Sequence record: AP029160.1
Origin: a plasmid
Length of the DNA: 64,000 nt
Reading direction: 5' to 3' (one strand)
Shown here: piece after piece, positions 4,456 through 62,496 of the stretch
How positions within the stretch are numbered: the stretch's first letter is position 1
Layout: each line of letters starts with the position of its first letter
Notes under the pieces: model-generated
The model's input: the letters and a program-made list of their open reading frames with translations, nothing else
What the model was told of the DNA's origin: nothing
Databases searched by the model: none
Position numbers and translations under genes: made by a program

Positions 4456-4723
4456 AATCATTTAAACCAAAGGGCGTTGATCTTGTTCAGATATTTCAAA
4501 AATGACATCCTCTTTGGAAATTTGGACATCCACTATGGAAAATGACAGCGGATAAGAATGAGTATAGAAACTTGCATATATAATCTTCAATAATACTTAA
4601 TAATTTCAATTTATTATATAAATAAATGATATTATTATTGATATTTTTTTTTGGATCAAACCTTTATAGGAGTTTAACTAAAACAAAATATCACTAGATT
4701 TAAACTCATCCTTGTATTGCTGT

Positions 4724-4764
4724 TTCATTTTAGCTACTCTCTTATAAGGAGAGTAGCTAAAATG
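4724..4764. promoter_or_regulatory. perfect 17-bp inverted repeat (CATTTTAGCTACTCTCC / GGAGAGTAGCTAAAATG) spanning the RBS and start codon of the AbiEi gene
   Basis: Read directly: cattttagctactctc-ttataa-ggagagtagctaaaatg. Confidence 0.5.
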
Positions 4765-5628: not shown

Positions 5629-6442
5629 AGCACTTAATTATACCTCACAAAAAACAGGATTTTCTTCATCTCTGATTGAAAAAGATTATTACTGTTCTTT
5701 GATTCTAAAACTACTTTATGAAGAAGAAAATTTGAAAAATTATCTCATTTTTAAAGGAGGCACTTTACTTGCGAAAGGATATTTTGAATTTTTTAGAATG
5801 AGCGAAGATTTAGATTTTTCCATTGATAATTCTTTTTGTAAAGAAAGAAATGATCGAAGAAAAATTGCGAGTTACCTTAGAACAACAGTTCCACATATTC
5901 TGGAAAAGCTAAATTTAAGAGAGGTTTCTGCATTTAGAGGCTTTAATGAATCCACTCAATACAATGGTATTTTCGGATATGATTCCTTAGTTGGTCCTTC
6001 TGAAACTATAAAATTTGAAGTAGGTTTTCGAGGAGATCTTTTTTTCCAACCAGAAAAAGTGAATCTTGAAACGCTCTTAGAAGATCCTTTTTCAAGAGAT
6101 AAAGTTATTAAACCATTTCCAGTGATGGCTCTTTCAAAAAATGAAACGTATGCAGAAAAATTCCGTGCGGCTCTTACAAGAAAAAACCCAGCTATTAGAG
6201 ATTTTTTTGATATCGAAAAAATCCTTGAGTCTGGTTTTAATATATTTGAAGAATCATTTATTGAGCTGGTAAAAAATAAAATCTCTTTTGATAGCCATGC
6301 AAATATTGATTTAACTCTTGAAAAAAGAAAAACTCTAGAATCTCAGATTATAACAGATCTAAGACCAGTCTTAAAATTAAATGAAGATTTTAATTTAGAA
6401 AAGACGTGGTCATCTATTCATGATTTGACAAAAAAATTATAA
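5606..6442 (+). CDS. abiEii: AbiEii/AbiGii-family nucleotidyltransferase toxin (DUF1814)
   Basis: 'LIFKGGTLLAKGYFEFFRMSEDLDFSID' matches the KGGTAL...R.S.DLDF nucleotidyltransferase motif of AbiEii. ~278 aa, the typical size. Confidence 0.65.
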   Translation: MTTKQLREALNYTSQKTGFSSSLIEKDYYCSLILKLLYEEENLKNYLIFKGGTLLAKGYFEFFRMSEDLDFSIDNSFCKERNDRRKIASYLRTTVPHILEKLNLREVSAFRGFNESTQYNGIFGYDSLVGPSETIKFEVGFRGDLFFQPEKVNLETLLEDPFSRDKVIKPFPVMALSKNETYAEKFRAALTRKNPAIRDFFDIEKILESGFNIFEESFIELVKNKISFDSHANIDLTLEKRKTLESQIITDLRPVLKLNEDFNLEKTWSSIHDLTKKL

Positions 6443-6535: not shown

Positions 6536-6601
6536 GACACCCCAATCCACTTATTCATACAATCGTTAAATTTACCTAAAATGTCAATAAGAAATTACAT
6601 T

Positions 6602-9208: not shown

Positions 9209-9761
9209 TGTTAGTGTCCGAATAAAGTTTATTATCATCCCACAGTATAGTTTGATTTCCTGATATCCCAAGAGCTACCATCCGGCGTTGGTCATGGGTA
9301 ACAACGTCATGGCACGGAACACAAAGAGTTCTCATACCTTCTAAGCTACAGCCACCCCCTCCCCTCGTTACAGGAATAATGTGATCTGCATCCCAAAGAG
9401 CAAATCCTTTCTCTTTATTTTTAATAAAGCTTTTTATCCTACGTTCTGGATAACCAAAATCTTTTAAAAACTTTACAGCATCTTCATAATTACTTTTTAA
9501 AATTTCTAGAGCATCTTTTCTGAGTTGCTCGCAATCTCTTTTGCAAAGAGAACAAACTCCATTGTCTCTTTCAAAAACAGCTTTACGCATATATCCAACA
9601 TCTGATCGCAATTTATGCTCATGAACACATGCATCTGAACAAAACGAACGCCGCCTCCCAAAAATCTCAGAGTTGCACCATCGGCATCTTGAAAGTTTTT
9701 TACCTTTAAAACTTTTTTTGCCTCGAATAGGCTCTCTCAAATCTCTACTTTTTGAAGCCAT
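9201..9761 (-). CDS. HNH endonuclease with zinc-ribbon cysteines
   Basis: 'DADHIIPVTRGGGGCSLEGMRTLCVPCH' contains the H-N-H core. Multiple CxxC pairs are present ('CRWCNSE', 'CSDAC', 'CSLCKRDC'). Confidence 0.7.
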   Translation of the reverse strand: MASKSRDLREPIRGKKSFKGKKLSRCRWCNSEIFGRRRSFCSDACVHEHKLRSDVGYMRKAVFERDNGVCSLCKRDCEQLRKDALEILKSNYEDAVKFLKDFGYPERRIKSFIKNKEKGFALWDADHIIPVTRGGGGCSLEGMRTLCVPCHDVVTHDQRRMVALGISGNQTILWDDNKLYSDTNND

Positions 9762-17634: not shown

Positions 17635-20600
17635 CTATAAATCTAAAGAAATATTTTGTTTTCTTTCTATTTTTAATTCCTTACCTTTCTCAAACTCAAT
17701 ATCATCTATTTCAAATGAAATATTCCTTGAAGAAGTGATTTCATTTTCAAATATATTATTTGAAAATTCTTCAGAAATATCGAATTTATTTTCTTTATAA
17801 TCATCTATATTCATATCTTTAAATCTGTATTCACTTTTTATGATCTCATTTTCAATTCCTATTTTATTACAGAGGATATCTATTGGTTTATAGCTCTGAT
17901 TAAATTCATTTTTAGAAGTCAGATCACATTCTGGACCATTTTCGACTTTAATTTCATTTTTGCTTAGTTCAGTTCCCAAACTTGGCTTCATTTTTGGCAA
18001 GTCAATATCTTTGAGAATATGCTCAACCGTTTTATTCTCATTTTTACGCGCAAACGAAAAATAGGATTCATAATCATTTTGCTGATTCCTTTCAATAAAT
18101 TTAGATTCTTTGATCAGTAATTTTCTTGCATCCTTAAATATTTCATTGACTTTACTCATATCTCCAATCTTTTGGTAGAGACAATTTTTAACATCTTTCT
18201 CAAAATGTTTTGTCTCTAGCCTTAAATCGAGATGAGATTTAATTGATTTATTATTTCTTTCGATATTTAATTGCATTTTCTCATCATATTCATACTTGTA
18301 TTTTACAAATTTTTGTTCAATAGATTTTGCAATTTCACTTCTAAATTCCTTATTGTTTTCTAAGTTTTTTGTAAATTCAAGAAATTTTGACTCTATCAGT
18401 TTTATATTCTCTTCCTCAGAAAAACTTTTATTCACTGTATTATTTGCTAAATTATCTATAATTTCAGTCAATAATTTTTCTCTTTGATACGGAAGTATAT
18501 TCTCTAATTTTTCAAATCCTGATTTTATTTCTAAATCCGTATTTTGTAATTCTCTAATTTTTTGAGATAATTCAAATTTTTTAGTTCCTTCATATTCGTA
18601 CGCTTTAGAAAGTCTATTATTTAGCAAATATGATTCAAATTTTTCTAAGCTAATCGTATCTAGTAAAATATTTTCTTTCTTGTCTAGTGCACTTATATTT
18701 TTATGCTCTTTTAAATTTGCAAATTCACTGTTTATAAATTTATATAATTCAAAATTTCTCTTCCCTTTTTCAAGGCTAAAAATCTCTATAAAATTATCTT
18801 TCGATACACTTTCACACTCATTTTTTAGTTTTTCATAATGGATGAATGCAGAATTTTCTGTCCCCCTTGCCTTTTCTTCAATTTGTTTAGAAAGAATTTC
18901 GTTTATTTTCTGTGGAGTATTATTTATAAATTCACTGCACATTTTTTTATACATTTGAATTAAATTAGAATCTTTTCCTTCAACAAATTGATAATACTGT
19001 TTTGCATATTCTATATTATAGCCAATCATAGTTTCTAAAGACTGAACCAAATCTTTATTTTCAGAAATAAATTTCAATATTTCTTCCTCTGTAAAATTTT
19101 CTTTTGAATACTTGTTCTTCATTTCAACTAGAATAGCTTTTCTCAACTCTGATTTTTCTATCAAGTTTGTAACTCTTGATTTAGAAATTTTATTATTTTC
19201 AAATTTCTTTTTCTCTTTAATTTCTGAATTCACATTTAAAATTTTGTTTTTCAATTTTTTTTCCTCATCATTTAAAAAATAGTCAGGAACAAATTTCAAT
19301 TGTTTTTCAGTGAGTAAATACGAGATAGGTACTTTTAATGCTTGGCTCCCCGTTTTAATTGCTAAATTCCGTTCAAATGGATCTTTATTCAGCATGATTT
19401 TAGGCAAGACTTCCTTTTTCCAATTTTCAATGTTTTGAAAATTTACTTCATCTGTTTCATAGGTAAATGACACAAAATGATCTAAAGGAACTTTATTTTT
19501 ACTTAATTCTGACTTTAATTCATCAATGCTATGACTTCTCAAATATTCATCAGGATCTTTAGTTGAAATATTTGTATAATTTAACTCTATATCATTCCCA
19601 CTAGCTAAAAAGAAACTTCTCTTTGCTGCATTCTTTCCAGCATTATCTGTATCAAATAGCAATGTAACTTCATTTGTATAGCTCTTTAGTTCATTTAAAT
19701 GCTCTTTTGTCAGTGCTGTGCCTAGAACAGCAACAACATTTTTTACTCCTGACTTGTGCAAAGCAATTTGGTCAAGATATCCTTCTACTACAATTGCTTC
19801 ACCAGCACTTTGAATGGATTCTTTAGCTTTGTCTAATCCAAATAAAATTGTTGATTTATTAAATATCTGCGTAGTTTTTGGATTTATATATTTTGAAACA
19901 CCTTTCTTTATTTCGATATCTCTATATATTCTTCCACCAAATCCGACACATTTTCCATCTGAATTATTGATAGGAATCATAATTCGATTGCGATAAAAAT
20001 CATACGATGAATTATTTTGGTTAAGTGATACTAACGAAAGCTTGATTAAATCTTTTTGGGAAATACCATTTTTCTTTGCAAATTGTTCTAACCCATAAGA
20101 ATGCGACAATCCAAATTTATATTCCCTTATTTCATCAAGAGTTAGACCCCTTTGTAAAAGATATTCAAGTGCTTCTTTCCCATTTTCTGAAAACAAATTT
20201 TCAACATAGAATTCTTGAACCTTTTCCATAATATTTAAAAGTCTTTCCTTCTCAATATTATCTTCACTCAATTTATTTATGGTTATGTTTTCTTCCGTTG
20301 GCAAATGTTCAAATAAATCAGGAGGAGGAAGTTCAAATTCATTACTAAACCCCTCCTCCATATCAAAATGAAATTCATTTGGAATCTCTTGCCCTTCTTC
20401 ATGCGTATTTATAATTATTGATTCTTCTATACTTTGAGAAGAAGATAATGTTGTTTCTTCTTCTATAGAATTGACAATCTCTGGGTCACGATTGAGTTTG
20501 ATTTCATATTTTTGATAAACAGCTCTCTGTTTTTCATATCCTTTGTATCTTGCTTTTAGATTCACTCCAGATGTTCGTTTTAAATCTTTCAGAAACCGTT

Positions 20601-23600
20601 TAGATTCTTTATCTGAAAAATCATCTTCATTTGCAATACAAATTACTTTTGCACCAGACTTTTCAGCCAATTCAAATAATCTTGATGATGTAGAAGATAT
20701 ATTTTTCCCTAAATCTTTTAAGATAATGATTGTATCTTTTGATAATTTAGTTCTTTTCTCTTCAATGCTTTCAACAAGCTTGCGAACATGTAACTCTTTT
20801 CCATCATTCAATTTAAAACCATTAACTCGTCCTGCATAACTATGGATTACCTGGTATGCACTATTTTCATATAAATCTTTTGTATGATTTAAAACAATAG
20901 ATAGGTCATCGTAAGCAAGATTTGATATAAATTTTACTCCCCCTTCATCACAGGTAAAATGAAGCAATGCAGCAGCTTGATTATTTGATAGATTTTCGCT
21001 TTCAATTCTCCTCATCACTCGCTCAAAACTTAAAATACTCTCCTTTTCATTTTTTCTTAAAATGGAATGTTGTAAAATATTCGCTTCTTCATTGTCTAAA
21101 TTCTGATAACAAAACAGCATTTTTCCATAACGATCATAAGTTAAAAACTTTAAATCCTCATGAACTAAAAGCTTTGTCATTAATGTATCTATTTTAGATA
21201 ATTCTATATTTCCTTTTGCTTCACTCAATAATGACTGATATAAAATAGTCTCATCAAATATCTGCAAATCATGTGAACTTTTAAATAGAGCATTTTGGAC
21301 AATTTCTTCATCTGATAGACAATTCTTAATTTCTTTAGTTTCATTGGGAATATCTGTTACAATATGTTCAAAATTTAGAATGTGTTCCTTTTCATTTTTA
21401 GAAATGAAAGTAGATTTTTCTAAAAATTGCTTTAATTCGAATGGAGATAAAAATTTATCACATTTTAATTTTGAAATATTTTTTTCGAAATGCTCTGCAA
21501 ATAAAGCATGGACATGATCATTACGTTCATGGATGCGTAAAATTTCAGATTCATTGGAAATACTAACTTTGAGCTCTTTTGTAAGTGATTCAGCCAATAT
21601 AGTTTCATAAAGATTTTTAATTATCTTTTGATTTTCAATAAATGAAAACTGATTCAAAGAAACTTCAGTTTTATCATTTAAGACAATATTCTTAAAACTC
21701 AAATCTGAATGAATATATTGAATTTGTGACAACTCTGGATTTTTTTCAAATATTGTATCTTTTGAATTTAAATCAAATTGAAATTGTCCATCTATCTTTA
21801 GATAGTTCTTAAAATGTTCTAAAGCTTGTCTAATCGAATCCTCATGAATTTTTAAAATTTTATCTCTTATTTCTTTCGTGGAAGTAAAATAATAAGCTGA
21901 GACATCACTTGGGGCTGCAATAGATAAAACCATTTGATTTCCATCTTTTGCTAAGACAAGATTTTTTTGATGTTTATCGTAAAAATCCATTTTATTGCTT
22001 TTTTGTATATACTTTCTTTCTTTTTGCTCCTTTATTATTTCTGTTGCTGTTAAATTTGATTTGCTTTTAAGGAGGGATTTTTCAATCGCATCTTTTGATT
22101 CGGCAAATATTTTTAACGAATGTGTGGAACGGGTAAAAACAGTGTAAATTTCCTCATGACCACAATAACTTTCAATCAGTCCAATCGTATTCTTCTTTGT
22201 AGCCCCCTGACTTGCATTAAAAGTCACCGCCCATGAATGAGACATAAAATTTAAACTGTCTAAATGAATCGTGTCTTCTGTGCCTCGTTCATACTTGATT
22301 TTAGCCGTTCTTGCTTCGTGATTAATTTCAGTAATTTTAAACATTTGTTTATTTAAACGCCCTCTATCTTTGCTATTTTTCCTCCATGACATCCAGTCAT
22401 TTTCTGCAATATTTATTTTTTGCGCTTTGAATTGAAAAATATCTTTCACATGCTCTGGTTTAACAGTAAATTTATTGCCATTTGAATCACTAACTGTAAT
22501 CGTATTGTTTATCGTATCTCTCTCTTGAATAAGATAACTCTCATTTGCTCTTAATGCTGTATTTGGATTTTCAGTGACGACAATATTTCCAATTTCGTAA
22601 TTTAGAGCATATTTTAGTTGTTTTTTACTAACTGAAACAGGAATATAAGTAGTAACTTCAGTCTGATTTTTTAAATATCCTCTTTCTAATAATCCACTTC
22701 GAATTCCATTTGTGATTTCATGAATAGAATTGTGTGTTTTAGCGACTATCAATGACTTATTCATTTCACTTTCGCTAAGAGACAAAAAATATTTGACTGC
22801 ATTTTGAATACGCCCTTCTTCTGTCTTAAATTCTTCAATTGAATTTTTAAAATGAAATACTGCTTTTTGTGCTAATTCTTTTGCCGTATTTTTATAATAA
22901 ACTGAATCTAGTTTTTGCAGATCAAACGCATTTAAATATTTAACCCCTTGAGCTAAATTTCTATTCTTTTGCCGTACGGATTCATCAAGACGAACTGTTT
23001 TGATATTCGTATAACGACTCACAAATTTTAAAAAGTGACCGGACGAAGGAGCTGATAATTGAGATATTCCTCCTACAATTATCATCCTAGCATTTTCAGC
23101 ATCAGCTCTTTTTGCAAGCTCATACCCTAATTTTGCATTGATTAAACCTGACTCATCAATTATCCATAACTTTTTAGAGTTTTGGGGGTTATCTTCTTTA
23201 ATTTTTGAAAGTACGAGACTATCAATGGTCTGAGCATTGATTCCTGTTTCGGAAGATAAAATAGATGCTGCATCCCCATTTTGAGCAAATCCGCGAACAT
23301 CATAACCAACTTTTTTTGCTTCATCGATGACAGTTTTGAGCGAGTAGGTCTTCCCTGCTCCTGCCACACCTTCCCAAATTAAATGTCTATCCTCAGATAA
23401 AAGAGTTTCTTCAATTGCATTTTTTTGTCCATTATTAAGTCCAGAAGATCTGCTGATACTTGCAATAAGATCGGTGATCAAAGCGTCTTTCTCAATTTTT
23501 TTCAGTTTTAAGTTTGAAACAATATCGAAGACCTCCTCATTCAATGATTGGATTTCATAAGAGGACAATCGAATATGAGGAGGAATTTTTTCTTCAATCA

Positions 23601-25200
23601 ATGATATGATGTTTTCTTTATTAGAAAGTTCATATTTACCTAAAATATCTTTTACTTCATGTAAAATTTTATTTTTATCTTCTAAACTAAATTTATTTTT
23701 TTCTTCAAACAATTCTTTAATTTTATCTTTATCAAGAATTCTTTCAAAGTTACCGCCTTTTTGCAAAATTTCTGCTGTTTTTTCTTCAATTTCTAATGAC
23801 TCCTTTGTAAGGTATTTCACCCCTTTTTCAACTTTAACAGTAATAAGATCTTTTTCAATTTGACTATTCAATGGATTCATCAATTCATCAAAACCATATT
23901 TCCCAAAATTATTTTGAATGTGATTCATCTTTGCGGTTTCAACATGAAATAGGACATTTCTATCGCTGGCTTGACTAAAAGAATCTTGAACAGATTCCAT
24001 TAATTTTTTATTTTTATATTCTTCTGTATAATTTAACTCCTTATCATTTGTATTAACTTTATGATTTCTATCATATTCAAAAGCTGATTCTTCTCTTATC
24101 CATCTTTTTTTCTCTTCAGCGTGATCTATTTTTTCACTTTTTTTTGCACGCTCGACTTTGACAAGATTCCTGGCAGATTTTTGATCGGTTACTCCTAATT
24201 CATTGACGAGTTGATTCCTACGCTTAGAAAAATGTTGTTTCAATTCTTCTGGAATCCCTTTTATTTCAAATGTACCATTTGTATTAACTTCAATTTCATA
24301 GCCTAACTTTTGAATCTTATGCGCTAGTTCATTTTGATAAATCATTCCAAAATATTTAGAATAAGTTCTCAAGTCATCTGCATGCAAAGCGCGCCATTCT
24401 CCATCACCACGATTGATTAAATTAAAAATAACACAATGTGTATGAAGATGAGGATCGACTTCTCTACTCATATCATGTTCAAACGTCGCTATAATTAATT
24501 TTTTTGCATTTTCAATTTCTCTTTTTGTGTTATCACCAATTCTAGTATTAGCATATTCACTTTCAATAACATCTAACGTTTTTAAAACAGCGTCTCTGTG
24601 TGCTTGTAATATTTCTCCATCCTCACGAACTAATGCCATAATAGATACAGATTTAGGCGCATTAAAGGTAAGATCATAGCCTCCCCGTCTTTCAACAGGA
24701 CGAGTGACTTTATCTAAAGCCTGAGAAAGTAAATCAATAACCTCCTCTTTTTTCTGGCCTTTTAAATCAGAGTTTTTTAACGTATTTTTGAATGCTGCTA
24801 TACATTCATTATAATCTTTTCTTTTTAATTTTGTTGGATATCTGGTGTAATGACTTACAATTTTAAATAATTTTTCCTTTTGTTCTTTTTCTATTTCATA
24901 TTTTTCAGCAATTTTTAATATACTAAATTCCAGTACGCCACGTTCCGTTTTTGTAAGAAGGGGCTCTTGATATTTTTTTGGATCAACCGCATTTGTAGCT
25001 AATATTTTTTGCCCATCAGGAGTATATCCAAAAAGTAAATTATCAAATTGCTTAAAATCTATTTTTCCATTTAATTGTAATTCCTGCGCGGATTTTCCAT
25101 GCCATTTAGAATACTCGCAGGATTCCTCATTTGTGTAGTAATTATCTTTTTTATAGTAACTTCTTCCCATACTTAGAGAAACATTTTCAATTGAGAGCAT
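17635..25200 (-). CDS. giant multidomain conjugative relaxase: MobF/TrwC-type relaxase + SF1 helicase + DnaG-like primase + ~650-aa K/E-rich C-terminal tail
   Basis: N-terminal 'MLSIENVSLSMGRSYYKKDNYYTNE...WHGKSAQELQLNGKIDFKQFDNLLFG' parallels the TrwC N-terminus with the paired catalytic Tyr (SYY, NYY). The 3-His motif 'HDMSREVDPHLHTHCVIFN' lies near 24430-24465. Helicase Walker A 'GVAGAGKTY' lies near 23345-23371. Primase/Toprim residues 'VVEGYLDQIALHKSG' and 'LLFDTDNAGKNAAKRS' lie near 19600-20220. Confidence 0.8.
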   Translation of the reverse strand: MLSIENVSLSMGRSYYKKDNYYTNEESCEYSKWHGKSAQELQLNGKIDFKQFDNLLFGYTPDGQKILATNAVDPKKYQEPLLTKTERGVLEFSILKIAEKYEIEKEQKEKLFKIVSHYTRYPTKLKRKDYNECIAAFKNTLKNSDLKGQKKEEVIDLLSQALDKVTRPVERRGGYDLTFNAPKSVSIMALVREDGEILQAHRDAVLKTLDVIESEYANTRIGDNTKREIENAKKLIIATFEHDMSREVDPHLHTHCVIFNLINRGDGEWRALHADDLRTYSKYFGMIYQNELAHKIQKLGYEIEVNTNGTFEIKGIPEELKQHFSKRRNQLVNELGVTDQKSARNLVKVERAKKSEKIDHAEEKKRWIREESAFEYDRNHKVNTNDKELNYTEEYKNKKLMESVQDSFSQASDRNVLFHVETAKMNHIQNNFGKYGFDELMNPLNSQIEKDLITVKVEKGVKYLTKESLEIEEKTAEILQKGGNFERILDKDKIKELFEEKNKFSLEDKNKILHEVKDILGKYELSNKENIISLIEEKIPPHIRLSSYEIQSLNEEVFDIVSNLKLKKIEKDALITDLIASISRSSGLNNGQKNAIEETLLSEDRHLIWEGVAGAGKTYSLKTVIDEAKKVGYDVRGFAQNGDAASILSSETGINAQTIDSLVLSKIKEDNPQNSKKLWIIDESGLINAKLGYELAKRADAENARMIIVGGISQLSAPSSGHFLKFVSRYTNIKTVRLDESVRQKNRNLAQGVKYLNAFDLQKLDSVYYKNTAKELAQKAVFHFKNSIEEFKTEEGRIQNAVKYFLSLSESEMNKSLIVAKTHNSIHEITNGIRSGLLERGYLKNQTEVTTYIPVSVSKKQLKYALNYEIGNIVVTENPNTALRANESYLIQERDTINNTITVSDSNGNKFTVKPEHVKDIFQFKAQKINIAENDWMSWRKNSKDRGRLNKQMFKITEINHEARTAKIKYERGTEDTIHLDSLNFMSHSWAVTFNASQGATKKNTIGLIESYCGHEEIYTVFTRSTHSLKIFAESKDAIEKSLLKSKSNLTATEIIKEQKERKYIQKSNKMDFYDKHQKNLVLAKDGNQMVLSIAAPSDVSAYYFTSTKEIRDKILKIHEDSIRQALEHFKNYLKIDGQFQFDLNSKDTIFEKNPELSQIQYIHSDLSFKNIVLNDKTEVSLNQFSFIENQKIIKNLYETILAESLTKELKVSISNESEILRIHERNDHVHALFAEHFEKNISKLKCDKFLSPFELKQFLEKSTFISKNEKEHILNFEHIVTDIPNETKEIKNCLSDEEIVQNALFKSSHDLQIFDETILYQSLLSEAKGNIELSKIDTLMTKLLVHEDLKFLTYDRYGKMLFCYQNLDNEEANILQHSILRKNEKESILSFERVMRRIESENLSNNQAAALLHFTCDEGGVKFISNLAYDDLSIVLNHTKDLYENSAYQVIHSYAGRVNGFKLNDGKELHVRKLVESIEEKRTKLSKDTIIILKDLGKNISSTSSRLFELAEKSGAKVICIANEDDFSDKESKRFLKDLKRTSGVNLKARYKGYEKQRAVYQKYEIKLNRDPEIVNSIEEETTLSSSQSIEESIIINTHEEGQEIPNEFHFDMEEGFSNEFELPPPDLFEHLPTEENITINKLSEDNIEKERLLNIMEKVQEFYVENLFSENGKEALEYLLQRGLTLDEIREYKFGLSHSYGLEQFAKKNGISQKDLIKLSLVSLNQNNSSYDFYRNRIMIPINNSDGKCVGFGGRIYRDIEIKKGVSKYINPKTTQIFNKSTILFGLDKAKESIQSAGEAIVVEGYLDQIALHKSGVKNVVAVLGTALTKEHLNELKSYTNEVTLLFDTDNAGKNAAKRSFFLASGNDIELNYTNISTKDPDEYLRSHSIDELKSELSKNKVPLDHFVSFTYETDEVNFQNIENWKKEVLPKIMLNKDPFERNLAIKTGSQALKVPISYLLTEKQLKFVPDYFLNDEEKKLKNKILNVNSEIKEKKKFENNKISKSRVTNLIEKSELRKAILVEMKNKYSKENFTEEEILKFISENKDLVQSLETMIGYNIEYAKQYYQFVEGKDSNLIQMYKKMCSEFINNTPQKINEILSKQIEEKARGTENSAFIHYEKLKNECESVSKDNFIEIFSLEKGKRNFELYKFINSEFANLKEHKNISALDKKENILLDTISLEKFESYLLNNRLSKAYEYEGTKKFELSQKIRELQNTDLEIKSGFEKLENILPYQREKLLTEIIDNLANNTVNKSFSEEENIKLIESKFLEFTKNLENNKEFRSEIAKSIEQKFVKYKYEYDEKMQLNIERNNKSIKSHLDLRLETKHFEKDVKNCLYQKIGDMSKVNEIFKDARKLLIKESKFIERNQQNDYESYFSFARKNENKTVEHILKDIDLPKMKPSLGTELSKNEIKVENGPECDLTSKNEFNQSYKPIDILCNKIGIENEIIKSEYRFKDMNIDDYKENKFDISEEFSNNIFENEITSSRNISFEIDDIEFEKGKELKIERKQNISLDL

Positions 25201-25261
25201 ATTTAAAACCCTTTATCATAACTAATTTTTGTATTTTAATTTTTGTAGTAAATAAAAAAGT

Positions 25262-25282
25262 AGGTGCTAAAAGGATTTTAGC
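25262..25282 (-). terminator. perfect hairpin GTGCTAAAA-gga-TTTTAGCAC followed on the minus strand by a T run; terminator after the coupling-protein gene, or alternatively an oriT-associated inverted repeat
   Basis: Read directly from the sequence between the T4CP stop (25288) and the relaxase start (25200). Confidence 0.4.
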
Positions 25283-25287
25283 ACTTT

Positions 25288-27669
25288 TTAATGCAAATTA
25301 ATGGTATTCTCATTTTCTTCTTGAGTGTGAATTTGTTCTTTCTCGTCTTTGCCTATATCTTGTAGAGGAGATTTAAAATAAATTGGAATGGATTTAAACT
25401 GTATTTCTTCCTCTTCTTTAGGTTGATGAATCTCATTGTTTAGTTCTTCTTTTGAATTTTGGTTACTTATCCTCAAATTTGGATTTCCTAATCCTCCTTC
25501 CTTTTCTTCATTTGTTTTATTCTGATTTTTTAAACTATATTGAACAATATCCTTCTTATCATTTTTTGAATTTGATTCGATTTCATCCATACTAATTTTT
25601 GGAAATTGAATCGTAAATTCAATAGAATCATAGTTTACGTGAATTAACTTTGTTTTTTCGTTAATATACAAAGCATATAATGTTTCGCTAATTTTTGTTT
25701 TGATTGATTTTGTCGCTCCAAACTTTTCTAATATTTCTTTTGCAACTAGATCAAGATTTTCTTTATCGATAGGCTTTTTCAAATAAATTTTTACAGCACT
25801 ATCAATTAAAGACTTTAATGAAGCTGAAAACTCTTGTAGTTGAGATTTTTGAAGTTCATTTTCAAGGTTAGATATCTTTTCTTGTTTTTCCTTTTCCTTG
25901 TTTGCTATCATCTCTTTTGACTCATAGGGTTTTAAATCAACAAAATCTAACCATGTTTTTTCAGTCACGAATGAAATGCAGCCTTCGTTTTTCTTTTGTA
26001 GGGAAGCATATTTGAAGATAACTTTAGTAGGGTTAAAGCGCGCTAGCTTAAGAAATGCATGATTGTCTTTTAGAGCTTGAATTTGAGAAGGAGTCACACT
26101 GTCTACTTGTCTAATTCGCTGTGATAAATTTGTATGCGCATGCCCTCCTACTGAAGTGGATGAGTCTAGCTCTATAATTTCAGATCGTCCCATCCGTTCG
26201 CTAAATATCTCAGCTTCTTTTCTACTATTTGACGCAAACACGATAATGTTTTGCAATCCCTGGAAAATGCTTTGAGCCATCTCACGGCCATAAATAATTT
26301 CAAGCTGATGGTACGATTGAAAACCGATAACCATTTTTGTTTTAAATCTTCTTCCTTTATCAAATACAAGTGGAAGAGTTGGAAGGTTACCAACCGTTGA
26401 AATTTCATCGCAATAAAGGCTAATCCTCTTTAAATTTTCTTTATTAATATCACGATTAAAACTCGCTGACGTAACTATATCGAACCATAGTCTATGCAAT
26501 GGCTTTGCATCTTCCAAATTAATGGAATCATCAATTATAAAAATCCACGAATCATCATCATTATTATTTACCCAGTTTGTGAGAGAAAATTCTTCTAATT
26601 TTATATTCTCTTCTTTTTCTCTTTCATAGACATGATGATTGAGATATTTTATAAAATTAACATTCATGAAAGCTGAAGCAATTACACCAGCGCTTTGTCC
26701 ACTGGCTTTTTTTCCTAGATACTGTTTTGAAAGTTCTTTATTATCAAGTAATAAATTATATAAATCTTCTTCTGAATAGTTAACAATTTGCCAGAGCTCT
26801 TCTTGCGTTTTTGCAATGCGAAGAGCTGCTGCCATCACTTCACGGCCAGTTTTATCAAAGAATTTGTTACTATTTGAGGATTCTTTAATTTCAATTAATG
26901 CATTAGCTAGAAATTTTGGGGGCAGATTTTCACACCAAAAAGACCATTTTTCTGCTCTCTTATCGTAGAGGGACATAATATGATCCCCTTTTTTGCCATG
27001 CTTTGCAAAAAATTCACCTCTTGGATCAATAATTAAAACTTTATTCCCAAATTTACGTTCTTGCACTAATTGCTCATCCATTGCATTTGTTTTACCTGTC
27101 GCAGAAGCGCCGCACATCCCAAAATGTAAACTTGCTATTTTATCAGGAATTTGAATTTTAGAAGTTGAGATTTTTAGATCATGATCTGTAAATTCTATAT
27201 CATTTCCCTTATTTCTTACATCTGCTTTAATTTCATTTTTTAACTCATCAGGATCTACATATTTTAACTCATCATTTCGTTCTGTTTTTCCTTGTTTAAA
27301 CTCAAATCCAATTTTTTTTGTAATATAAATTGCTCCAATTAAGCATAAAGTAAATCCTATGAAAAAATTTAAGATAAACAAATCTGTTTTATTTTTATTT
27401 TGCTCCCAATATTCAGAAATGATTAAATATTTATTCTTATCTTCAATTGTTGGGTTCAAAAAATCAATTTGAGAATTTAAGTAAAACGTTATCTTTTTCC
27501 AAACCAAATCTAAATACCATGATATTCCACCCTCAAAATTTAAATGAATCATTAAAAATGTAAGTAAAAATCCACCAATGATCGCAATTAATAAATATGT
27601 AAGAAATTCTTTAAAAAATTTATTCATGAAATTAGAAGTAATTTGTAATCCATAATTAGAACTTTTCAT
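25288..27669 (-). CDS. virD4: type IV coupling protein (VirD4/TraD/TraG family)
   Basis: Two N-terminal TM helices. Walker A 'GMCGASATGKTNAMD'. 793 aa. Sits directly upstream of the relaxase. Confidence 0.7.
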   Translation of the reverse strand: MKSSNYGLQITSNFMNKFFKEFLTYLLIAIIGGFLLTFLMIHLNFEGGISWYLDLVWKKITFYLNSQIDFLNPTIEDKNKYLIISEYWEQNKNKTDLFILNFFIGFTLCLIGAIYITKKIGFEFKQGKTERNDELKYVDPDELKNEIKADVRNKGNDIEFTDHDLKISTSKIQIPDKIASLHFGMCGASATGKTNAMDEQLVQERKFGNKVLIIDPRGEFFAKHGKKGDHIMSLYDKRAEKWSFWCENLPPKFLANALIEIKESSNSNKFFDKTGREVMAAALRIAKTQEELWQIVNYSEEDLYNLLLDNKELSKQYLGKKASGQSAGVIASAFMNVNFIKYLNHHVYEREKEENIKLEEFSLTNWVNNNDDDSWIFIIDDSINLEDAKPLHRLWFDIVTSASFNRDINKENLKRISLYCDEISTVGNLPTLPLVFDKGRRFKTKMVIGFQSYHQLEIIYGREMAQSIFQGLQNIIVFASNSRKEAEIFSERMGRSEIIELDSSTSVGGHAHTNLSQRIRQVDSVTPSQIQALKDNHAFLKLARFNPTKVIFKYASLQKKNEGCISFVTEKTWLDFVDLKPYESKEMIANKEKEKQEKISNLENELQKSQLQEFSASLKSLIDSAVKIYLKKPIDKENLDLVAKEILEKFGATKSIKTKISETLYALYINEKTKLIHVNYDSIEFTIQFPKISMDEIESNSKNDKKDIVQYSLKNQNKTNEEKEGGLGNPNLRISNQNSKEELNNEIHQPKEEEEIQFKSIPIYFKSPLQDIGKDEKEQIHTQEENENTINLH

Positions 27670-48893: not shown

Positions 48894-49312
48894 ATATCTG
48901 AACTATGTCAGATCCCAAAGACCTTTAGACTCAGAGATCAATCATATCAATCACATTCCAAAAGTGAACGAGACTAAAATTGCTCAATAGACATAAGGAC
49001 TGTATGCTAAAAGTTCTATACACCTAGAGACTGGATAGCATACATGGATAGCCTTGGAAGAGACAAAACAAACACTTCAGAACCTCCAATGACTGAAATA
49101 AGATTCAAAGGTCGGTTCTGAATTTTTGATCATTATATGCACTTTTACCCCCCAATTTAGCATTCTGTAAGAAAGTACATATAACGTACAAAAATTAAGG
49201 AAAAAAATACGTATAATGAGATTTATATGTACTTTTTATACTAATTAAATTCAACTTCTAAAAATCTTAATATATAATCAAATTAATAAATTTTATTTTT
49301 AAGGAGATAATA

Positions 49313-54739: not shown

Positions 54740-55126
54740 CTACTTTCTTCTACTTCTAGAATTTTGAGGATTATTTGGATCAGGTCCATTTCCATTAGAA
54801 ACGTTTTGTGGAGTATTCGGATCTGTTCCTATATTTTTCCTACTTCTTATTTTTTTTAACTTATCTGACTTATTAGGACGACCGCGTTTCTTAGCTGTTT
54901 TAGTTCCTGCTTTTTTTGGACGGCCACGTTTTGCAGTTTTTTTCTTAGCTGTCGTTTTTTTTGCAGTCTTCTTTTTTGTTGTTGTTTTTTTACGAACAGT
55001 TTTTTTAGCTGCTGGCTTCTTCGCTTTTGTTTTTCTTTTCTTAGTTGATTTCTTTATAGTTCTCTTTTTAGATATTCTCTTTGTTCTTTTTTTAATTGAA
55101 GATTTTCTTGTTCTTTTTATAACCAT
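54740..55126 (-). CDS. histone H1-like lysine-rich nucleoid protein with two AT-hook motifs
   Basis: 'KKTAKRGRPKKAGTKTAKKRGRPNKSDK' contains two RGRP AT-hook cores. More than 50% of residues are K/R/T/A. Confidence 0.55.
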   Translation of the reverse strand: MVIKRTRKSSIKKRTKRISKKRTIKKSTKKRKTKAKKPAAKKTVRKKTTTKKKTAKKTTAKKKTAKRGRPKKAGTKTAKKRGRPNKSDKLKKIRSRKNIGTDPNTPQNVSNGNGPDPNNPQNSRSRRK

Positions 55127-55605
55127 AATATTCTCCTATTTATAAAATATTCTATTAAATATAATATTTTATAAATAGGAAATATTTTCAGTGTTGATTT
55201 TTATTTAGATAATCTTCTAAATTATCTTTTATCAAAATAAATCCTTTCAACCATATAATTAATTTGTTCATAATTATAATCACCATTTCTTTCTGCAATT
55301 CTCTCATAACATCATTTAGATCTCAAAATATTGTTTTGGAGGATAGCAAAATATTGTGATTTATTAAGAATAATTTAAGAATATCTTGTAAGCTTTACTT
55401 TCTGCTTTTTCTAATGTTTTTTCATGTGGACTTTAAAAATAAGAATAAGGATTATTAGAATATATTTCTAAATAATATTTATCACGTAAGTATTTATCTA
55501 ATTTTTTATCGTATTTTTCAGTACTTTGAGATATTAAAAATGTTCCATCAGGCCATGCACTAATTTTAGAAGAATATTGGTAAGAATTGTCAAAAATAAA
55601 TGCGC

Positions 55606-55863
55606 TCATGACAATTTATCATTATCAGTAAATATATCGACTTGAATCTCTCCTTTATTTCCAAATAAAGGCTCATTATTTTTATTAATTATTTTATTCA
55701 CAATATTTTGCCAATCCAATGGAAATCTACTTTTAAGAAAGAATCTTAAAGCTTTTGAATATTGCTGTTTTTCAGCCCAGATTCTAGCTTGATCATCACT
55801 TAGGTGTAACGGTGCGCTCTTATCGGAGTATTGTCGCACGCTTATCCAAAAATTTGGGCGCAA
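55606..55863 (-). CDS. ORF whose 5' end lies inside the left arm of a 165-bp inverted repeat; shares 18 aa (RPNFWISVRQYSDKSAPL) with 56368-56955
   Basis: Direct comparison of the two translations. Confidence 0.25.
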   Translation of the reverse strand: MRPNFWISVRQYSDKSAPLHLSDDQARIWAEKQQYSKALRFFLKSRFPLDWQNIVNKIINKNNEPLFGNKGEIQVDIFTDNDKLS

Positions 55864-55960
55864 ATTAATTGAAATTATCGTTTTGTTTCGGTGCTCATTA
55901 AATGAAATCGAGAGAATCCCGACGCACGCTATTTGAAATCGGGCGCGCGATAATTGAATT
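55795..55960. repeat. left arm of a ~165-bp inverted repeat (partner at 56385-56550, about 2 mismatches)
   Basis: The reverse complement of 56385-56540 is tgtaacggtgcgctcttatcggagtattgtcgcacgcttatccaaaaatttgggcgcaaattaattgaaattatcgttttgtttcggtgctcattaaatgaaat(t/c)gagagaatcccgacgcacgctatttgaaatcgggcg(c/a)cgataattgaat, which equals 55806-55960. Confidence 0.85.
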
Positions 55961-56367
55961 TATAAATTTTAGATTTCTATTATTTTTACTTCATCTTGAG
56001 TTAAGAAGTTTTCCTTATTTTTTGCAAAGAATTTGGATTCTTTTAAATCGTCAGATTCAAAGGATTTATAATAATCGTTTTTAACTTCCACTTTTTCTTG
56101 CTGAGGATAAATCACGGAATAAGTACCATTTGGTAATTTACTAACTTTTATTTATTCATTTTCTGGATTATTTTTGGCGATCACAATAAATTTTCCCATA
56201 TTTATTACCTCAATGTATATTCGATAAAAACCTTTAAAACATGTTTTTATTGTAATATTTGCTATATAAATATAAATGATATTCATTTAACTTTTAATAT
56301 TCTAAAAACGATTGTTTTCTTCGAATTGCAAAATAACTAAGCATACATTTTTAAAGATTTTTAGGAT

Positions 56368-56955
56368 TTGATGAGGGGTTTAGAAATTCAATTATCGTGC
56401 GCCCGATTTCAAATAGCGTGCGTCGGGATTCTCTCAATTTCATTTAATGAGCACCGAAACAAAACGATAATTTCAATTAATTTGCGCCCAAATTTTTGGA
56501 TAAGCGTGCGACAATACTCCGATAAGAGCGCACCGTTACAACTAGTGATAACACTTGCAAACGTGCTTCGTCTTCTAAGTAAATTATTCAACAAAAACAT
56601 CATATCTACTAAAAATCAATATAGTTATAATTTTGGACCGTTGATTGGAGATGTAAGGTGGGTTGACGTGGTTATTGCATCTTCAAATTACATACGCCAT
56701 AAAGATGAATGGGTAGAGAAGTCAAACAAAAAAGATTCGAAAATTAGAAATATTGAAAAATACAACGTAGATACACTTGAAAAATCAGGACTTATTCATC
56801 CCAGGGAAGGAAAGTATTCATCTTTAGATTTAGTGAAACATCTAAAAATCGAAAGATGGGAAACCTTATTTCAAAATATTTCAAATTGGTTAAATGATTG
56901 TTTACCTAATCATCCTGGGTTTCGTCAGAATGATATAGTGCTTCCTGAAAACTAG
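56368..56955 (+). CDS. hypothetical protein (195 aa) starting inside the right IR arm
   Basis: ORF. The N-terminal 40 aa are encoded by the repeat. Confidence 0.3.
   Translation: MMRGLEIQLSCARFQIACVGILSISFNEHRNKTIISINLRPNFWISVRQYSDKSAPLQLVITLANVLRLLSKLFNKNIISTKNQYSYNFGPLIGDVRWVDVVIASSNYIRHKDEWVEKSNKKDSKIRNIEKYNVDTLEKSGLIHPREGKYSSLDLVKHLKIERWETLFQNISNWLNDCLPNHPGFRQNDIVLPEN
56385..56550. repeat. right arm of the ~165-bp inverted repeat
   Basis: See left arm. The arms are separated by a 424-bp AT-rich spacer. Confidence 0.85.
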
Positions 56956-57188
56956 ACTTGTTGGAGTTTTTGGCAAACAAAGTGTTTTTAAACAAAGCCA
57001 AGAAATATTTTGCTCTTTTTAAAGAACTGCTCTCATTACACTATTGTCTCAGTCTCCACATCTTTGGGAATAGTCCAATTGTCTTTGGGAACTGACATTG
57101 GGATACGACAGTCTTTGCCCTTTTAAATTTCAAAATGTTAAATTATATTTATTGCAGTCTATAGACTGCTAAAATTTAGAGTATAGAG

Positions 57189-57755: not shown

Positions 57756-59753
57756 TTAAAATGGGATATCTCTATCGTTATTGACATTAGATTTGTAAAA
57801 ATTTGAAACTTGAGTTCGATTTAAATATTCTTGTAAAGATACACCAAGTATCTTTGCTCGTTTTACAAAGTAAGCGTGCATATTCTCACTTCTTGTAAAT
57901 TTCTTACCACAAATATGTTGGGCATTTAATGCAAAAACATTTTCATCATAAAGTTGTCCAGCTAAAGAACTATACGATTTTGTATTTTTCCTAATGTGAA
58001 TAATTGAACTTGCAGATATTTCTTTACCTAATATCTGTCTCAATTTTGGCAAAAGTAATGTTAACTTATAATGCTGATTTTTTACCACACAAAGAATTAA
58101 TTTGTTTTGATAAAAAAATCCTACTCTGTGATGAAATGATACTGCATCTATTCTAAGCTTTGTATCCTTACTCTGAACTGGAAAACTCAATAAATTCTTA
58201 AGTAGACCCTGGAAAAGATAGCACTTCAAATTTTCCAACCCCGAGATCAGATACGCTTTCTGTTCATTTTCTATTGGTGAGAAAGAACCTCTCTCACTCT
58301 CCGCTGCTATCGCGAACGGAGCTATGCTCCTACTAGAAATAAAAGGCCCCAAAAAAGAGCAAAAAGGAGTTACGTTAAAGTTACTTTCATGTTTACTTTT
58401 TAATTTTTCTGGACTCGACTTAAACACTCCCTTAAGAAAATATTTATCATCTTCCATCCAGTTTGGAAGATGTAACTTTCCGATTCCAAATAACTCTTTT
58501 CTATTTTGATATATCGAATGAACTGTAGACTTTATTTGATTCTCTTTACAAGTTCTTGAAGTTTCATTTCCCATAATAAACTTTGTTCGCATTTTTATTT
58601 TTTCAAAAGTCTCTTGTTCTGAATACCCATTCCATTTATATGCTATTATCCAATTTACGATTGCATAATTTCTTTCTCCATCAACAATTCTGAATGGCTC
58701 TATTATTTTTAACTTAACACTTGTTTGAGAAATATTAGATGCCATTACTTTTTGTGCTCTATCTATTTGTTTCAGAACTTTTTTTGATGGTTTGCATCCA
58801 AGCTTTATAGCCCCTTCAATTGTCTCTTTAATAAAGAATATTTCTTGAAACCTATCGCTTCTTATATACATATTTGCAGTCCTTAAATTTACTTGCATGA
58901 TATTTGCTAACTCAAATTTGCTAAGCTCAACCATTTTATAAGCAGAAACATAAGGCACCTCTAAATCTATTAATTTCTTTTCTCCATTTAAAAATGATTT
59001 AGCGTCGATTTGTTTAGGAGTATATAATCCCATAAGATATAAAAAAAGTTTTGAATAGGATTTTTCAACCCGTATGTCGGGATAAAATCGATAGTTAATT
59101 TCTAATTCTTTTACTAAATATTCTACATATTTTAATAAATTGGTTATAAATGGTTCTTGCTTCAAAATTACTTCTTGTTCGTTTGTAACTCTAACTCTTG
59201 ATTTTTTAGCTTCTCTCTCAATTCGTTTTGTTAATAATTCATTATGATAAACTAAATTACTTCTTTTGTTATATGTACAAAAATCTTGTTTTAAACCTAA
59301 TCCCGATGGGTCTGCTCCAATACCTAGTTCATTAAAAATTTGTATTAATTGATATTGTAATTGTCTTGCACTGATCTGGGCGCCTTGGGTTCTTTCATAC
59401 AAAGGTAAAGGAGATACTCCAAATAGGATATGCAAACCTCTTCCCGATGTGCTACGCGTCACATATTCTATACCTTCTAATATTTTTGAATACTGTCCTA
59501 AAGAATTTTGAATTAACTCCCAGCACAATTTATTATCTTTTTTAAACTCATCATTTGATTTTTCAAAATCAACGTCTAGTCGGATATACCTTAATACTTC
59601 ATTTCCATCTGTATTTGTAAAATACGTTGACTGTAAATCTGGATTTGAAGATTTTTTGCACTTAACTGGTATACGATAGTTATCTTTTGCTATTTGCCAC
59701 TTTTTAAAAATATACTTTCCTGATTCATATTTAAAAAATGCTGGAGCAGACAT
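57756..59753 (-). CDS. archaeo-eukaryotic-primase (PrimPol/RepB'-like) domain protein; candidate plasmid replicase/primase
   Basis: AEP motif I 'YIRLDVDFEK' (D-x-D) and motif II 'RSTSGRGLHILFG' (sGxGxH) near the N-terminus. 665 aa. Confidence 0.45.
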   Translation of the reverse strand: MSAPAFFKYESGKYIFKKWQIAKDNYRIPVKCKKSSNPDLQSTYFTNTDGNEVLRYIRLDVDFEKSNDEFKKDNKLCWELIQNSLGQYSKILEGIEYVTRSTSGRGLHILFGVSPLPLYERTQGAQISARQLQYQLIQIFNELGIGADPSGLGLKQDFCTYNKRSNLVYHNELLTKRIEREAKKSRVRVTNEQEVILKQEPFITNLLKYVEYLVKELEINYRFYPDIRVEKSYSKLFLYLMGLYTPKQIDAKSFLNGEKKLIDLEVPYVSAYKMVELSKFELANIMQVNLRTANMYIRSDRFQEIFFIKETIEGAIKLGCKPSKKVLKQIDRAQKVMASNISQTSVKLKIIEPFRIVDGERNYAIVNWIIAYKWNGYSEQETFEKIKMRTKFIMGNETSRTCKENQIKSTVHSIYQNRKELFGIGKLHLPNWMEDDKYFLKGVFKSSPEKLKSKHESNFNVTPFCSFLGPFISSRSIAPFAIAAESERGSFSPIENEQKAYLISGLENLKCYLFQGLLKNLLSFPVQSKDTKLRIDAVSFHHRVGFFYQNKLILCVVKNQHYKLTLLLPKLRQILGKEISASSIIHIRKNTKSYSSLAGQLYDENVFALNAQHICGKKFTRSENMHAYFVKRAKILGVSLQEYLNRTQVSNFYKSNVNNDRDIPF

Positions 59754-60727: not shown

Positions 60728-61504
60728 TCAGTTAAGGTAACAAGAAATATTATTATCAATATTAGATAAAATTGATTTTATCTTATCTTGTACGGAAGAA
60801 ATATCATAAAGTTGCTTCTCTGTTAATTTTTTATCTTTATTTTCAATAAAAATACTGTTTACTTGTTTCTCTAATGTCAAAGCAGTCAAAGTTAGTTGTC
60901 CTATTTTCATGGAAATATTAATTTTACTAACCTTTTGTGTAGGTGCTTTAAAAGAAAGTATCTCCTTTACTTCTAATCTATCTGCTTGATTATGTAATTG
61001 TGATAAATCAAAACCACTTCTAGAAACAGAAAGCAAGGCTCTTAACTTTTCCATAGGAAGTTTTTTATTCTTAAAAAGACTTAGCTCTTTAGAAATTGCC
61101 ATGAAATCATAAGCTAAACGAATTGAAAAAGGAATTTTTGTCTCCAGATAACTTTTAAAGTTTTTTTCCTCTGTTTCAAAAAATCTTTTCCTACAAGAAT
61201 TCAATATGTCACCGGCAATAAAAGCAAAAGAAGCATCCATATTAACTTTTATTTTTTGATATGTTTCCCAGTACTCGTGAATTAAATTGCCATAATCCTC
61301 AGGTGCTTGTAATTCTTGTTCTCTAGACTCTAAAGTTCTATCCCAATTAGTCATAAGTCTGTGTAAACTTGTGACAGCAGCTTCTTCAATATTATCTGAA
61401 TTTAAGGAAATTAATTGATTTGTGGTAGGAATAAAGTTTTTTGTCTTTATTTCTTCTTTATCAACTCCCTTTTTTTGTAATATATCTTTAACCGAGGAAC
61501 TCAT
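60728..61504 (-). CDS. hypothetical protein in the ParB position (downstream of parA, 4-bp overlap); no recognisable ParB motif
   Basis: Position and coupling only; no GERRxRA-like motif seen. Confidence 0.3.
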   Translation of the reverse strand: MSSSVKDILQKKGVDKEEIKTKNFIPTTNQLISLNSDNIEEAAVTSLHRLMTNWDRTLESREQELQAPEDYGNLIHEYWETYQKIKVNMDASFAFIAGDILNSCRKRFFETEEKNFKSYLETKIPFSIRLAYDFMAISKELSLFKNKKLPMEKLRALLSVSRSGFDLSQLHNQADRLEVKEILSFKAPTQKVSKINISMKIGQLTLTALTLEKQVNSIFIENKDKKLTEKQLYDISSVQDKIKSILSNIDNNISCYLN

Positions 61505-62496
61505 AATATAGCCTCTTCGTCTTTATTAGATTCAACTTTTTTCTTATTACTAGAAACTTCATATAAATTTAAAATATGCTTTACTACAACATCTAAATCT
61601 TCACCAGCTTGAGTCGATCTTTTAGTCCAAAGATGCTCTCCATCTTCCATTGATGAAATAAATTCTGAAGACTGCTTTATCAAATTTGGAATCATAAACG
61701 TTGAATACTGAGCATAAAACTGTTGTAAATAGGATGTACTAGCCTTTATTCTTGGATCATACATATTCACTAAAATATTTATTTCAGGTTTTTTCTTATA
61801 AGACTTTGAAATTTCATTCCATTGATTAAAAACTTGTTCTAATCCCAATTTTGAATATATATCTGGTTTAACTGGAGCAATAATTCTATCAACGGCTAGA
61901 TAAATAGCGTGTGTTAAATGAGTTAATGCCGGTGGACAATCACAAATTATTAAATCATATTCTTCTAATAACTGATTCATTGGACTAGCAATTAAACTAG
62001 AAAGATTCTCAGCTCCCAAGATTATTTCTTTATCAAGTAAACAGTTTTTTGGAGCTGAAGGGATTATACTTAAAAATTCATTAATAGGTTTTACTAGATC
62101 AAAAATATTTGTTGTTTTTTTTCTTAAGTAATCGAGCCAAACTAAATTTTGTTCATCAAATATATTCATTGAAACAGTCAAATTTAATTGATGATCGAAA
62201 TCAATTAGAAGGGTTTTATAACCATACATTGAAGCTCTAATTGCAAAATTTTTTGATAAAGAAGATTTTCCAACTCCTCCCTTAACGATTTGGAATGCTA
62301 TAGATTGCTTTTTATAATTATAACCTCGTGAAGTTTGGAGAAATTCTCGAACACTTTGTGGAGGTACAGTAGAAAATTTCTTGTTACTTTTTGCAGCTCC
62401 TGCTCTATTTTTAAACAATTGCGGTACAGCTTGTCTTGTTACATCAAGAAGATTCGCAATATCAACAACGCTTAACTCATACTGATTATTTTGCAT
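61501..62496 (-). CDS. parA: ParA/SopA-type partition ATPase (long form with N-terminal extension)
   Basis: Deviant Walker A 'KGGVGKSS'. ~100-aa N-terminal extension with an HTH-like 'VVDIANLLDVTRQAV', as in type Ia ParA. Confidence 0.7.
   Translation of the reverse strand: MQNNQYELSVVDIANLLDVTRQAVPQLFKNRAGAAKSNKKFSTVPPQSVREFLQTSRGYNYKKQSIAFQIVKGGVGKSSLSKNFAIRASMYGYKTLLIDFDHQLNLTVSMNIFDEQNLVWLDYLRKKTTNIFDLVKPINEFLSIIPSAPKNCLLDKEIILGAENLSSLIASPMNQLLEEYDLIICDCPPALTHLTHAIYLAVDRIIAPVKPDIYSKLGLEQVFNQWNEISKSYKKKPEINILVNMYDPRIKASTSYLQQFYAQYSTFMIPNLIKQSSEFISSMEDGEHLWTKRSTQAGEDLDVVVKHILNLYEVSSNKKKVESNKDEEAIL

Follow-up and report, generated by a model that had tools for sequence, protein, structure and literature searches.

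Structure of the locus

The window, a stretch of 64,000 nucleotides (nt) from a plasmid (sequence record AP029160.1; one strand, 5' to 3'), harbours at positions 55805-56540 a 736-bp element enclosed by two long inverted arms. Both genes to the left of this element are decayed, one of them truncated at its 5' end and the other a remnant of a gene for a protein of 189 amino acids (aa); a 95-aa hypothetical gene to the right (Table 1) and an XRE regulator are its other neighbours. The element is very probably a non-autonomous ('miniature') transposon, called the mini-element below, whose 162-bp arms are the terminal inverted repeats (TIRs) of a family of three-gene transposons. It is a real mobile element of an ordinary kind from an under-annotated family, and nothing indicates a genetic switch.

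The inverted-repeat arms, located by a repeat search and direct comparison, occupy 55801-55966 and 56379-56544, each 166 nt long, and are separated by a spacer of 412 nt. They differ at four positions (55804, 55909, 55947, and 55962; 97.6% identity), and with one 1-nt gap the inverted match reaches 55795/56550 in a BLAST search with the arm. A repeat of 166 nt at such identity is far beyond chance. An earlier note on this DNA had described a near-perfect inverted repeat of 165 bp around a 424-nt spacer, with about two mismatches; the repeat and its outer coordinates, 55795 and 56550, stand as given, its inner ends were placed 6 nt too short, and the spacer length and mismatch count are superseded by the values above. 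The same note had correctly described the arms as richer in guanine and cytosine (GC) than their surroundings, the GC content being 40.4% in the arms, 23.8% in the spacer, 25-31% in the flanks, and 28.4% in the whole window. It had also proposed a search for further copies: within the window, BLAST and an nhmmer profile of the arm returned these two alone, and relatives are present in other contigs.

The TIRs make up 44% of the length of the mini-element. Its 412-nt interior contains a single open reading frame (ORF) of 76 codons, termed here the passenger gene. This is the protein-like frame that had already been recognised as broken by an in-frame TAA, which falls on codon 16 (56152-56154, minus strand). 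The mini-element has no transposition genes, and tblastn with the proteins of a full-length relative, L004, described below, returned nothing in the window.

Table 1. Coordinates of the mini-element, its parts, and the adjoining genes in the window.
Feature	Position	Strand	Remarks
Left gene remnant, homolog of BFD33629.1 (107 aa) of pGTC16762-2	55606..55804	-	residues 43-107 kept, first 42 codons missing
Left flanking hexamer, CTTAGG	55799..55804		fits the NYTARN target
Left TIR	55805..55966	-	terminus 5'-TGTAACGG at 55805; six direct repeats of ~21 bp, some degenerate here
Passenger gene, 76 codons, pseudogene here	55969..56199	-	TAA at codon 16
Subterminal region, conserved with full-length transposons	56219..56378	-	promoter-like site and 14-bp palindrome
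Sigma-70-like promoter	56276-56249	-	TTGATA-N16-TACAAT in relatives
Palindrome, 14 bp	56305-56318		AAAACGATTGTTTT here, AAAACGATCGTTTT in relatives; one mismatch here
Right TIR	56379..56540	+	terminus ...CCGTTACA-3', ending at 56540 (...GTTACA)
Right flanking hexamer, ACTAGT	56541..56546		fits the NYTARN target; not a direct repeat of CTTAGG
Right gene	56668..56955	+	99% identical to P. ruber GTC16762_31360 (95 aa)

Each arm contains six direct repeats of approximately 21 bp, with the form rATTTCAAwTAnnGTGCGCC and ending in GCGCC. The GCGCC boxes stand at positions 21, 42, 73, 106, 130, and 152 of the 166-nt consensus (spacings of 21, 31, 33, 24, and 22 nt), and the repeats are organised as two half-units of ~83 bp each. 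Across the whole window, GCGCC and GGCGC add up to only 20 occurrences. When 13 arms, distant copies among them, are aligned, conservation falls on the repeat boxes and variation on the columns separating them. By analogy, the repeats are putative transposase-binding sites; multi-site ends are the rule for transposons of the Tn7, Mu, and Tn552 group.

Relatives of the arm and the parent transposon family

Relatives of the arm were located by exact-word scans in a Silvanigrella metagenome-assembled genome (MAG; L003) and in six metagenome contigs (L004-L009). Each of these loci carries a single arm at 77-89% identity, bounded sharply at identical nucleotide positions and set in a different flank. 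The L004 arm precedes an operon of three genes by 160 nt. The first encodes a serine recombinase (Pfam Resolvase, E-value 2e-28), whose best NCBIfam match, below the cut-off (164 vs 272 bits), is the Mpi master-invertase model. The second encodes a 548-aa rve DDE transposase with IS481 as its best NCBIfam match, also below the cut-off (E-value 1.6e-23), and the third a 322-aa AAA+ ATPase (AAA_22, 'ExeA-like'). A further contig, L007, overlaps the far end of L004 by 562 nt at 100% identity and brings in the opposite, inverted arm, giving a joint element of ~5.65 kb. On a single contig, L010, two inverted arms enclose a recombinase, a transposase that is 66% identical to that of L004, an ATPase, a YhcG nuclease, and a beta-lactamase.

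The 160 nt between the L004 arm and its operon are 83% identical to window 56219-56378, the subterminal region of the mini-element (L004 4851-5011); in L005, the identity rises to 92% (9232-9311). The right TIR and its inner flank together match L004 4851-5177 at 83%, and the homology stops ~20 nt before the start codon of the passenger gene. Columns of the subterminal region, including those of the 14-bp palindrome, are nearly invariant across the mini-element alignment; a promoter scan of the region, taken alone, did not rise above shuffled expectation. The region is a candidate promoter/operator or resolution (res) site, and it may serve as the latter as well because the recombinase gene follows it in the full-length elements.

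More distant members retain the same plan. L011-L013, with transposases 52% identical to that of L004, carry 115-bp TIRs at 91-94% identity flanking the same three genes. The module is also present in a Megaera plasmid (L015) and in pEh25_4, a plasmid of Enterobacter (L014), where the family transposase is WP_033488203.1 and the TIR measures 180 bp. The TIRs of L011-L015 and L022 are 115-180 bp long and have the same TGTA(A/G)CGG termini; all ends compared, namely those of the window, L010-L016, and L022, read 5'-TGTA(A/G)CGG...ACA-3'. Full-length transposons bearing this arm type measure 3.7-6 kb. The L004 transposase has >2,800 homologs, labelled 'IS481 family transposase' by the Prokaryotic Genome Annotation Pipeline (PGAP), and homologs of the family include copies on Salmonella, Klebsiella, and Enterobacter plasmids and in Legionella. 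The arm is thus assigned as the TIR of a recombinase/DDE transposase/ATPase family because paired arms bound full-length relatives with shared termini.

Two further observations concern individual loci. In L005 (6484-10437), the TIR and a conserved 85-nt subterminal segment are 2.6 kb apart, with genes for a substrate-binding protein and a methyl-accepting chemotaxis protein between them and a different rve transposase after the 85-nt segment; a second transposon may have inserted beside a res-like site there. In L010, a 25-nt palindrome (TAGTGTATTCTGCAGTATACACTAA) lies on either side of the transposon (12-36 and 6545-6569), ~15 nt and ~430 nt from its ends.

Recurrence of the mini-element and its passenger gene

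The mini-element as a whole recurs outside the window, in metagenome contigs. L016 300-1041 aligns to window 55805-56544 at 85.6%, covering both arms, the subterminal region, and the ORF, and the element is also present in contigs L017-L021, reached through homologs of the passenger gene. Its outer flanks are of four kinds (window, L016, L017/L018, and L021). As regards family membership, the arms match the TIRs of the autonomous elements L004+L007 and L010, transposition genes are missing from the interior, the element recurs at different sites, and the window shows no direct 6-bp duplication. The passenger gene takes the place of the three-gene module behind the same subterminal promoter region. 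In the proposed scheme, a transposase of the family, supplied in trans from another locus, would mobilise the mini-element by binding the six direct repeats of each arm as multi-site transposases do.

The passenger gene and the subterminal promoter region are conserved together in all copies, both inside the segment. Codon 16 is TAA here and Ser (TCA) in the homologs according to the translations; the intact homologs P0122-P0124 share 78-81% identity and have Ser at this codon. Ratios of non-synonymous to synonymous substitution rates (dN/dS) of 0.19-0.31 point to purifying selection on the gene. No Pfam family was found for the 76-aa protein, which has only two relatives among 1.84 billion representative proteins, and its single-sequence AlphaFold model has a mean predicted local distance difference test (pLDDT) score of 67.

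Arms within one mini-element are 97.6-97.7% identical (window and L016), against ~86% between arms of different elements, and the two arms of an element therefore appear to be homogenised against each other. This contrast bears on another origin offered in the earlier note, a recent inverted duplication. In such a case, a replication or repair error would have produced a local inverted duplication of ~170 bp with no relation to mobile elements, and the likeness of the two arms at 97.6%, while copies in other elements differ by ~14%, would be accounted for, as would the run of the repeat ~10 nt past the transposon termini into the flank. However, the two-armed element with the same interior recurs at ~86% with other flanks, so its architecture predates this window, and the equal within-element arm identity in L016 (97.7%) suggests ongoing homogenisation and not a single duplication. 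A duplication of this kind is therefore very unlikely as the origin. The suggestion of a miniature inverted-repeat transposable element (MITE) or insertion sequence (IS) remnant, made in the same note, was right in kind, the structure being a miniature non-autonomous transposon.

Target site and flanks

At every end examined, TA stands at the centre of the flanking hexamer. Perfect 6-bp target duplications are confined to two full-length elements, L014 and L015 (GCTAAT and CCTAAC). These, together with L011 and L012, two copies of the same element in which the two bases adjoining TG differ, led to the rejection of other duplication models, namely a 5-bp duplication adjacent to TG, a 2-bp duplication of TA only, and a terminus that includes CTA. 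The P0016 contigs sample one insertion site repeatedly and therefore add no independent duplication.

In both mini-elements, the inverted repeat continues ~10 nt beyond the termini. The flank continuation reads ATCACT(T)AGG vs ACTAGTGAT in the window and CATAGATTACT vs AGTAATCCATG in L016, with 10/11 positions matching in the latter. Comparison with the uninterrupted site in pGTC16762-2 showed that homology runs through CTTAGG and ends exactly at terminus 55805. Simple insertion into a gene of the pGTC16762-2 type was ruled out, as the sequence to the right of the element is not the rest of the interrupted gene. Because a matching target duplication is missing and the left gene is without its first 42 codons, we infer that the site was rearranged after insertion.

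Such a rearrangement would account for the loss of both the target duplication and the start of the left gene. It probably took the form of break repair or of template switching from one arm to the other, which lies close by; one arm and a few flank bases would be copied to the other side. In this way, the arms would be kept alike, the duplication would be lost, and neighbouring DNA, the missing 42 codons among it, would be deleted.

Counter-evidence and alternative explanations

Several observations weigh against a transposon origin. The window contains no autonomous partner; a single copy of the mini-element is visible here, so that its current mobility in this host is hypothetical. No arm was found among the PLSDB plasmids, which include two sister Pigmentibacter plasmids. 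The window hexamers, CTTAGG vs ACTAGT, do not duplicate each other, and in L016, the second complete mini-element, a direct duplication is missing too (ATTACT vs AGTAAT). The arm in L005 lies near a different rve transposase, with 27% identity over 66 aa to the L004 enzyme, and the pairing of arm and transposase is therefore not clean at every locus. Binding of the transposase to the ~21-bp repeats is, in addition, something that we infer.

The invertible switch, another of the origins named in the earlier note, would have a site-specific recombinase flip the 412-bp segment and thereby point its promoter at either of the outward genes. The inverted repeats around a promoter-like segment, the resolvase gene in the window, and the resemblance of the family recombinase to the Mpi master-invertase model are all in keeping with it, and RecA-mediated inversion between repeats of 166 bp is physically possible. 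Flipping, however, would leave the pairing of promoter and gene unchanged because both lie inside the segment, so that the enclosed promoter serves the enclosed gene. Moreover, the arm is also a transposon end and occurs, singly or in pairs, in many unrelated contexts. No recombinase gene adjoins the repeat; the only recombinase of the window, the resolvase that the earlier note had named, is 52 kb away, in a Tn5053-like TniB-TniQ module, and 26% identical to the family recombinase. As for the outward ORFs, the left one is a truncated pseudogene, and the right gene starts 128 nt outside the element. Taken together, these findings make a switch highly improbable, and this lead for phase variation is removed.

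It is just as hard to credit the arms as a cis-acting plasmid site, either origin iterons or a partition centromere, whose GCGCC boxes would bind the 665-aa protein encoded nearby or a ParB-like protein. The six phased direct repeats and the position of the locus among plasmid maintenance genes would suit such a site, as would the single arm of L003, which is separated by ~300 nt from a gene homologous to that of the 665-aa protein, and the presence of ParA at 61501-62496. Yet arms stand beside chromosomal-type genes (L006, L008, and L009) and at both ends of transposase-bearing units, and their conservation of 86%, compared with 66% at the nucleotide level for the 665-aa gene, is unlike that of iterons tracking their Rep protein. 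Both the termini and the target hexamers are as expected of a DDE transposon. Searches of a phage collection and of viral contigs with the arm gave no match.

Least likely of all are two copies of a gene for a small structured RNA or a short peptide: the arms have 40% GC in a window of 28%, and a 20-codon ORF start (MKSRESRRTLFEIGR...) is open in every copy, but Rfam (at gathering and relaxed thresholds) and tRNA searches gave no matches, the fold-energy z-scores of the two strands, +0.72 and +0.14, are no better than those of shuffled sequences, and the short ORF passes into non-homologous sequence beyond the arm, every frame through the arm being closed in at least one copy.

Comparison with known transposons

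The reading of the mini-element as a non-autonomous transposon allows comparison with described systems. By transposase similarity, termini, and duplication, IS481 is the nearest family in sequence. IS481 elements have NCTAGN duplications and TGT...ACA ends, as in TnRErm46 (PMC6794481; family overview in PMC10045372). The present family resembles them in its 5'-TGTnnCGG...ACA-3' ends, in the best NCBIfam match of the L004 transposase (IS481, as given above), and in the 6-bp duplication of intact relatives with a central (C)TA(G/A). It differs in the size of the transposase, ~550 aa vs ~330 aa, which scores below the cut-off of the IS481 model NF033577 (83.6 vs 224 bits for L004), and in its constant association with an AAA+ ATPase and a serine recombinase. 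Its TIRs are multi-repeat structures of 115-180 bp vs the ~20-50 bp typical of IS481, and the window element carries no transposase.

The architecture of DDE transposase, ATPase, and serine recombinase between long TIRs starting with TGT is shared with Tn552 (compared in L004, L010, L011, and L014). Tn552 in pMW2 was measured to have TIRs of ~116 bp, ends reading TGTCAC..., and a 7-bp duplication. Similarity in sequence is negligible: by tblastn, its transposase and that of the present family share 27% identity over 86 aa (E-value 0.003, one-to-one comparison), with no significant match for the ATPase, and the recombinases share general family similarity only. The gene order differs, TniQ is absent, and the duplication in the present family is 6 bp with a TA centre, in contrast to the 7 bp of Tn552. 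The wider 'DDE + AAA+' group includes Tn5053/Tn402, Tn7, and Mu. Sequence searches of the PDB with the transposase and the ATPase returned a weak IS21-type match and generic P-loop matches only.

Similar to MITEs, the mini-element is small (736 bp), ends in TIRs that belong to an autonomous family, has no transposase of its own, and occurs in several flanking contexts; unlike them, it is coding, with a 76-codon gene under purifying selection behind the promoter of the parent.

A literature search found no paper on a named transposon that combines an IS481-like transposase, an ExeA-like ATPase, and a resolvase, which is not proof that the family is undescribed. That the parent elements form a widespread undescribed family, of which the 736-bp element is the first recognised non-autonomous derivative, unusual for its selected 76-aa gene and for arms held almost identical through repair that would also copy flank sequence and remove the target duplication, is a tentative and rather doubtful extension. 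The present comparison delimits the ends, target preference, and TIR structure of a family that genome pipelines currently annotate gene by gene, as 'IS481 family transposase', 'ExeA family protein', and 'recombinase family protein', on enterobacterial plasmids among others. Should the family prove uncharacterised, its definition could start from the TIRs, the 6-bp NYTARN duplication, and the mini-derivative. Of minor interest are the selected passenger gene and the homogenisation of arm plus flank.

Flanking genes and the host plasmid

The analysis annotates a mobile element on a conjugative plasmid of the Pigmentibacter ruber type, carried by a human-associated bacterium, and explains the two decayed genes beside the element. 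The left flank, 55219-55808, is 89-96% identical to P. ruber plasmid pGTC16762-2. The earlier note had derived the 5' ends of two outward ORFs sharing 18 aa from the arms; as mechanical ORFs, 55606-55863 (minus strand) and 56368-56955 (plus strand) do exist and do share RPNFWISVRQYSDKSAPL, but the two N-termini encoded by the inverted repeat are not real. In the left ORF, 64/65 residues are identical to residues 43-107 of BFD33629.1, and the first 20 residues are arm-derived and unrelated, so that its arm-encoded N-terminus is fortuitous. The right gene has a GTG start preceded by an AAGGTGG Shine-Dalgarno sequence, and the 195-aa ORF that runs through the right arm is an over-extension. Because this gene starts at 56668, the 18 residues in common are incidental, arising from a single frame that by chance has no stop in this copy of the arm; when nine copies were translated in six frames, stop codons interrupted that frame in L003, L004, and L007, and none of the frames stayed open across the arm in every copy.

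To the left of the truncated gene, a 58-aa ORF at 55433-55609 is the remnant of the 189-aa gene of pGTC16762-2 (L001 5922-6491), from which a clean deletion has taken 181 bp (L001 6070-6250). Further left, a lysine-rich histone H1/HC2-like protein of 128 aa is encoded at 54740-55126 by imperfect 30-nt tandem repeats. Two short islands at 48906-49033 and 57062-57098 are 90% and 97% identical to pGTC16762-3 (L002 190-316 and 352-388), a plasmid that is otherwise unrelated; no annotated feature lies under L002 352-388.

The window as a whole looks like part of a conjugative plasmid. It opens with a Tn5053/Tn402-like module (2-4455), cut by the window start, that consists of the C-terminus of TniB (2-517), TniQ (517-1725), a Cache-domain fragment (1782-2111), a periplasmic binding protein (2191-3258), and a resolvase with HTH_7 (3868-4455). 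An AbiEi antitoxin/AbiEii nucleotidyltransferase toxin pair (4717-6442) comes right after the resolvase. The region 17635-27669 encodes a 2521-aa fusion of TrwC relaxase, helicase, and DnaG-type primase/Toprim, followed by a type IV coupling protein. To the right of the mini-element, the 665-aa protein is encoded at 57756-59753, ahead of ParA. It has no Pfam or PHROG matches, its homolog in the Silvanigrella MAG (L003 1449-2648; 66% nucleotide identity) lies near a single TIR, and it may be a plasmid replication protein.

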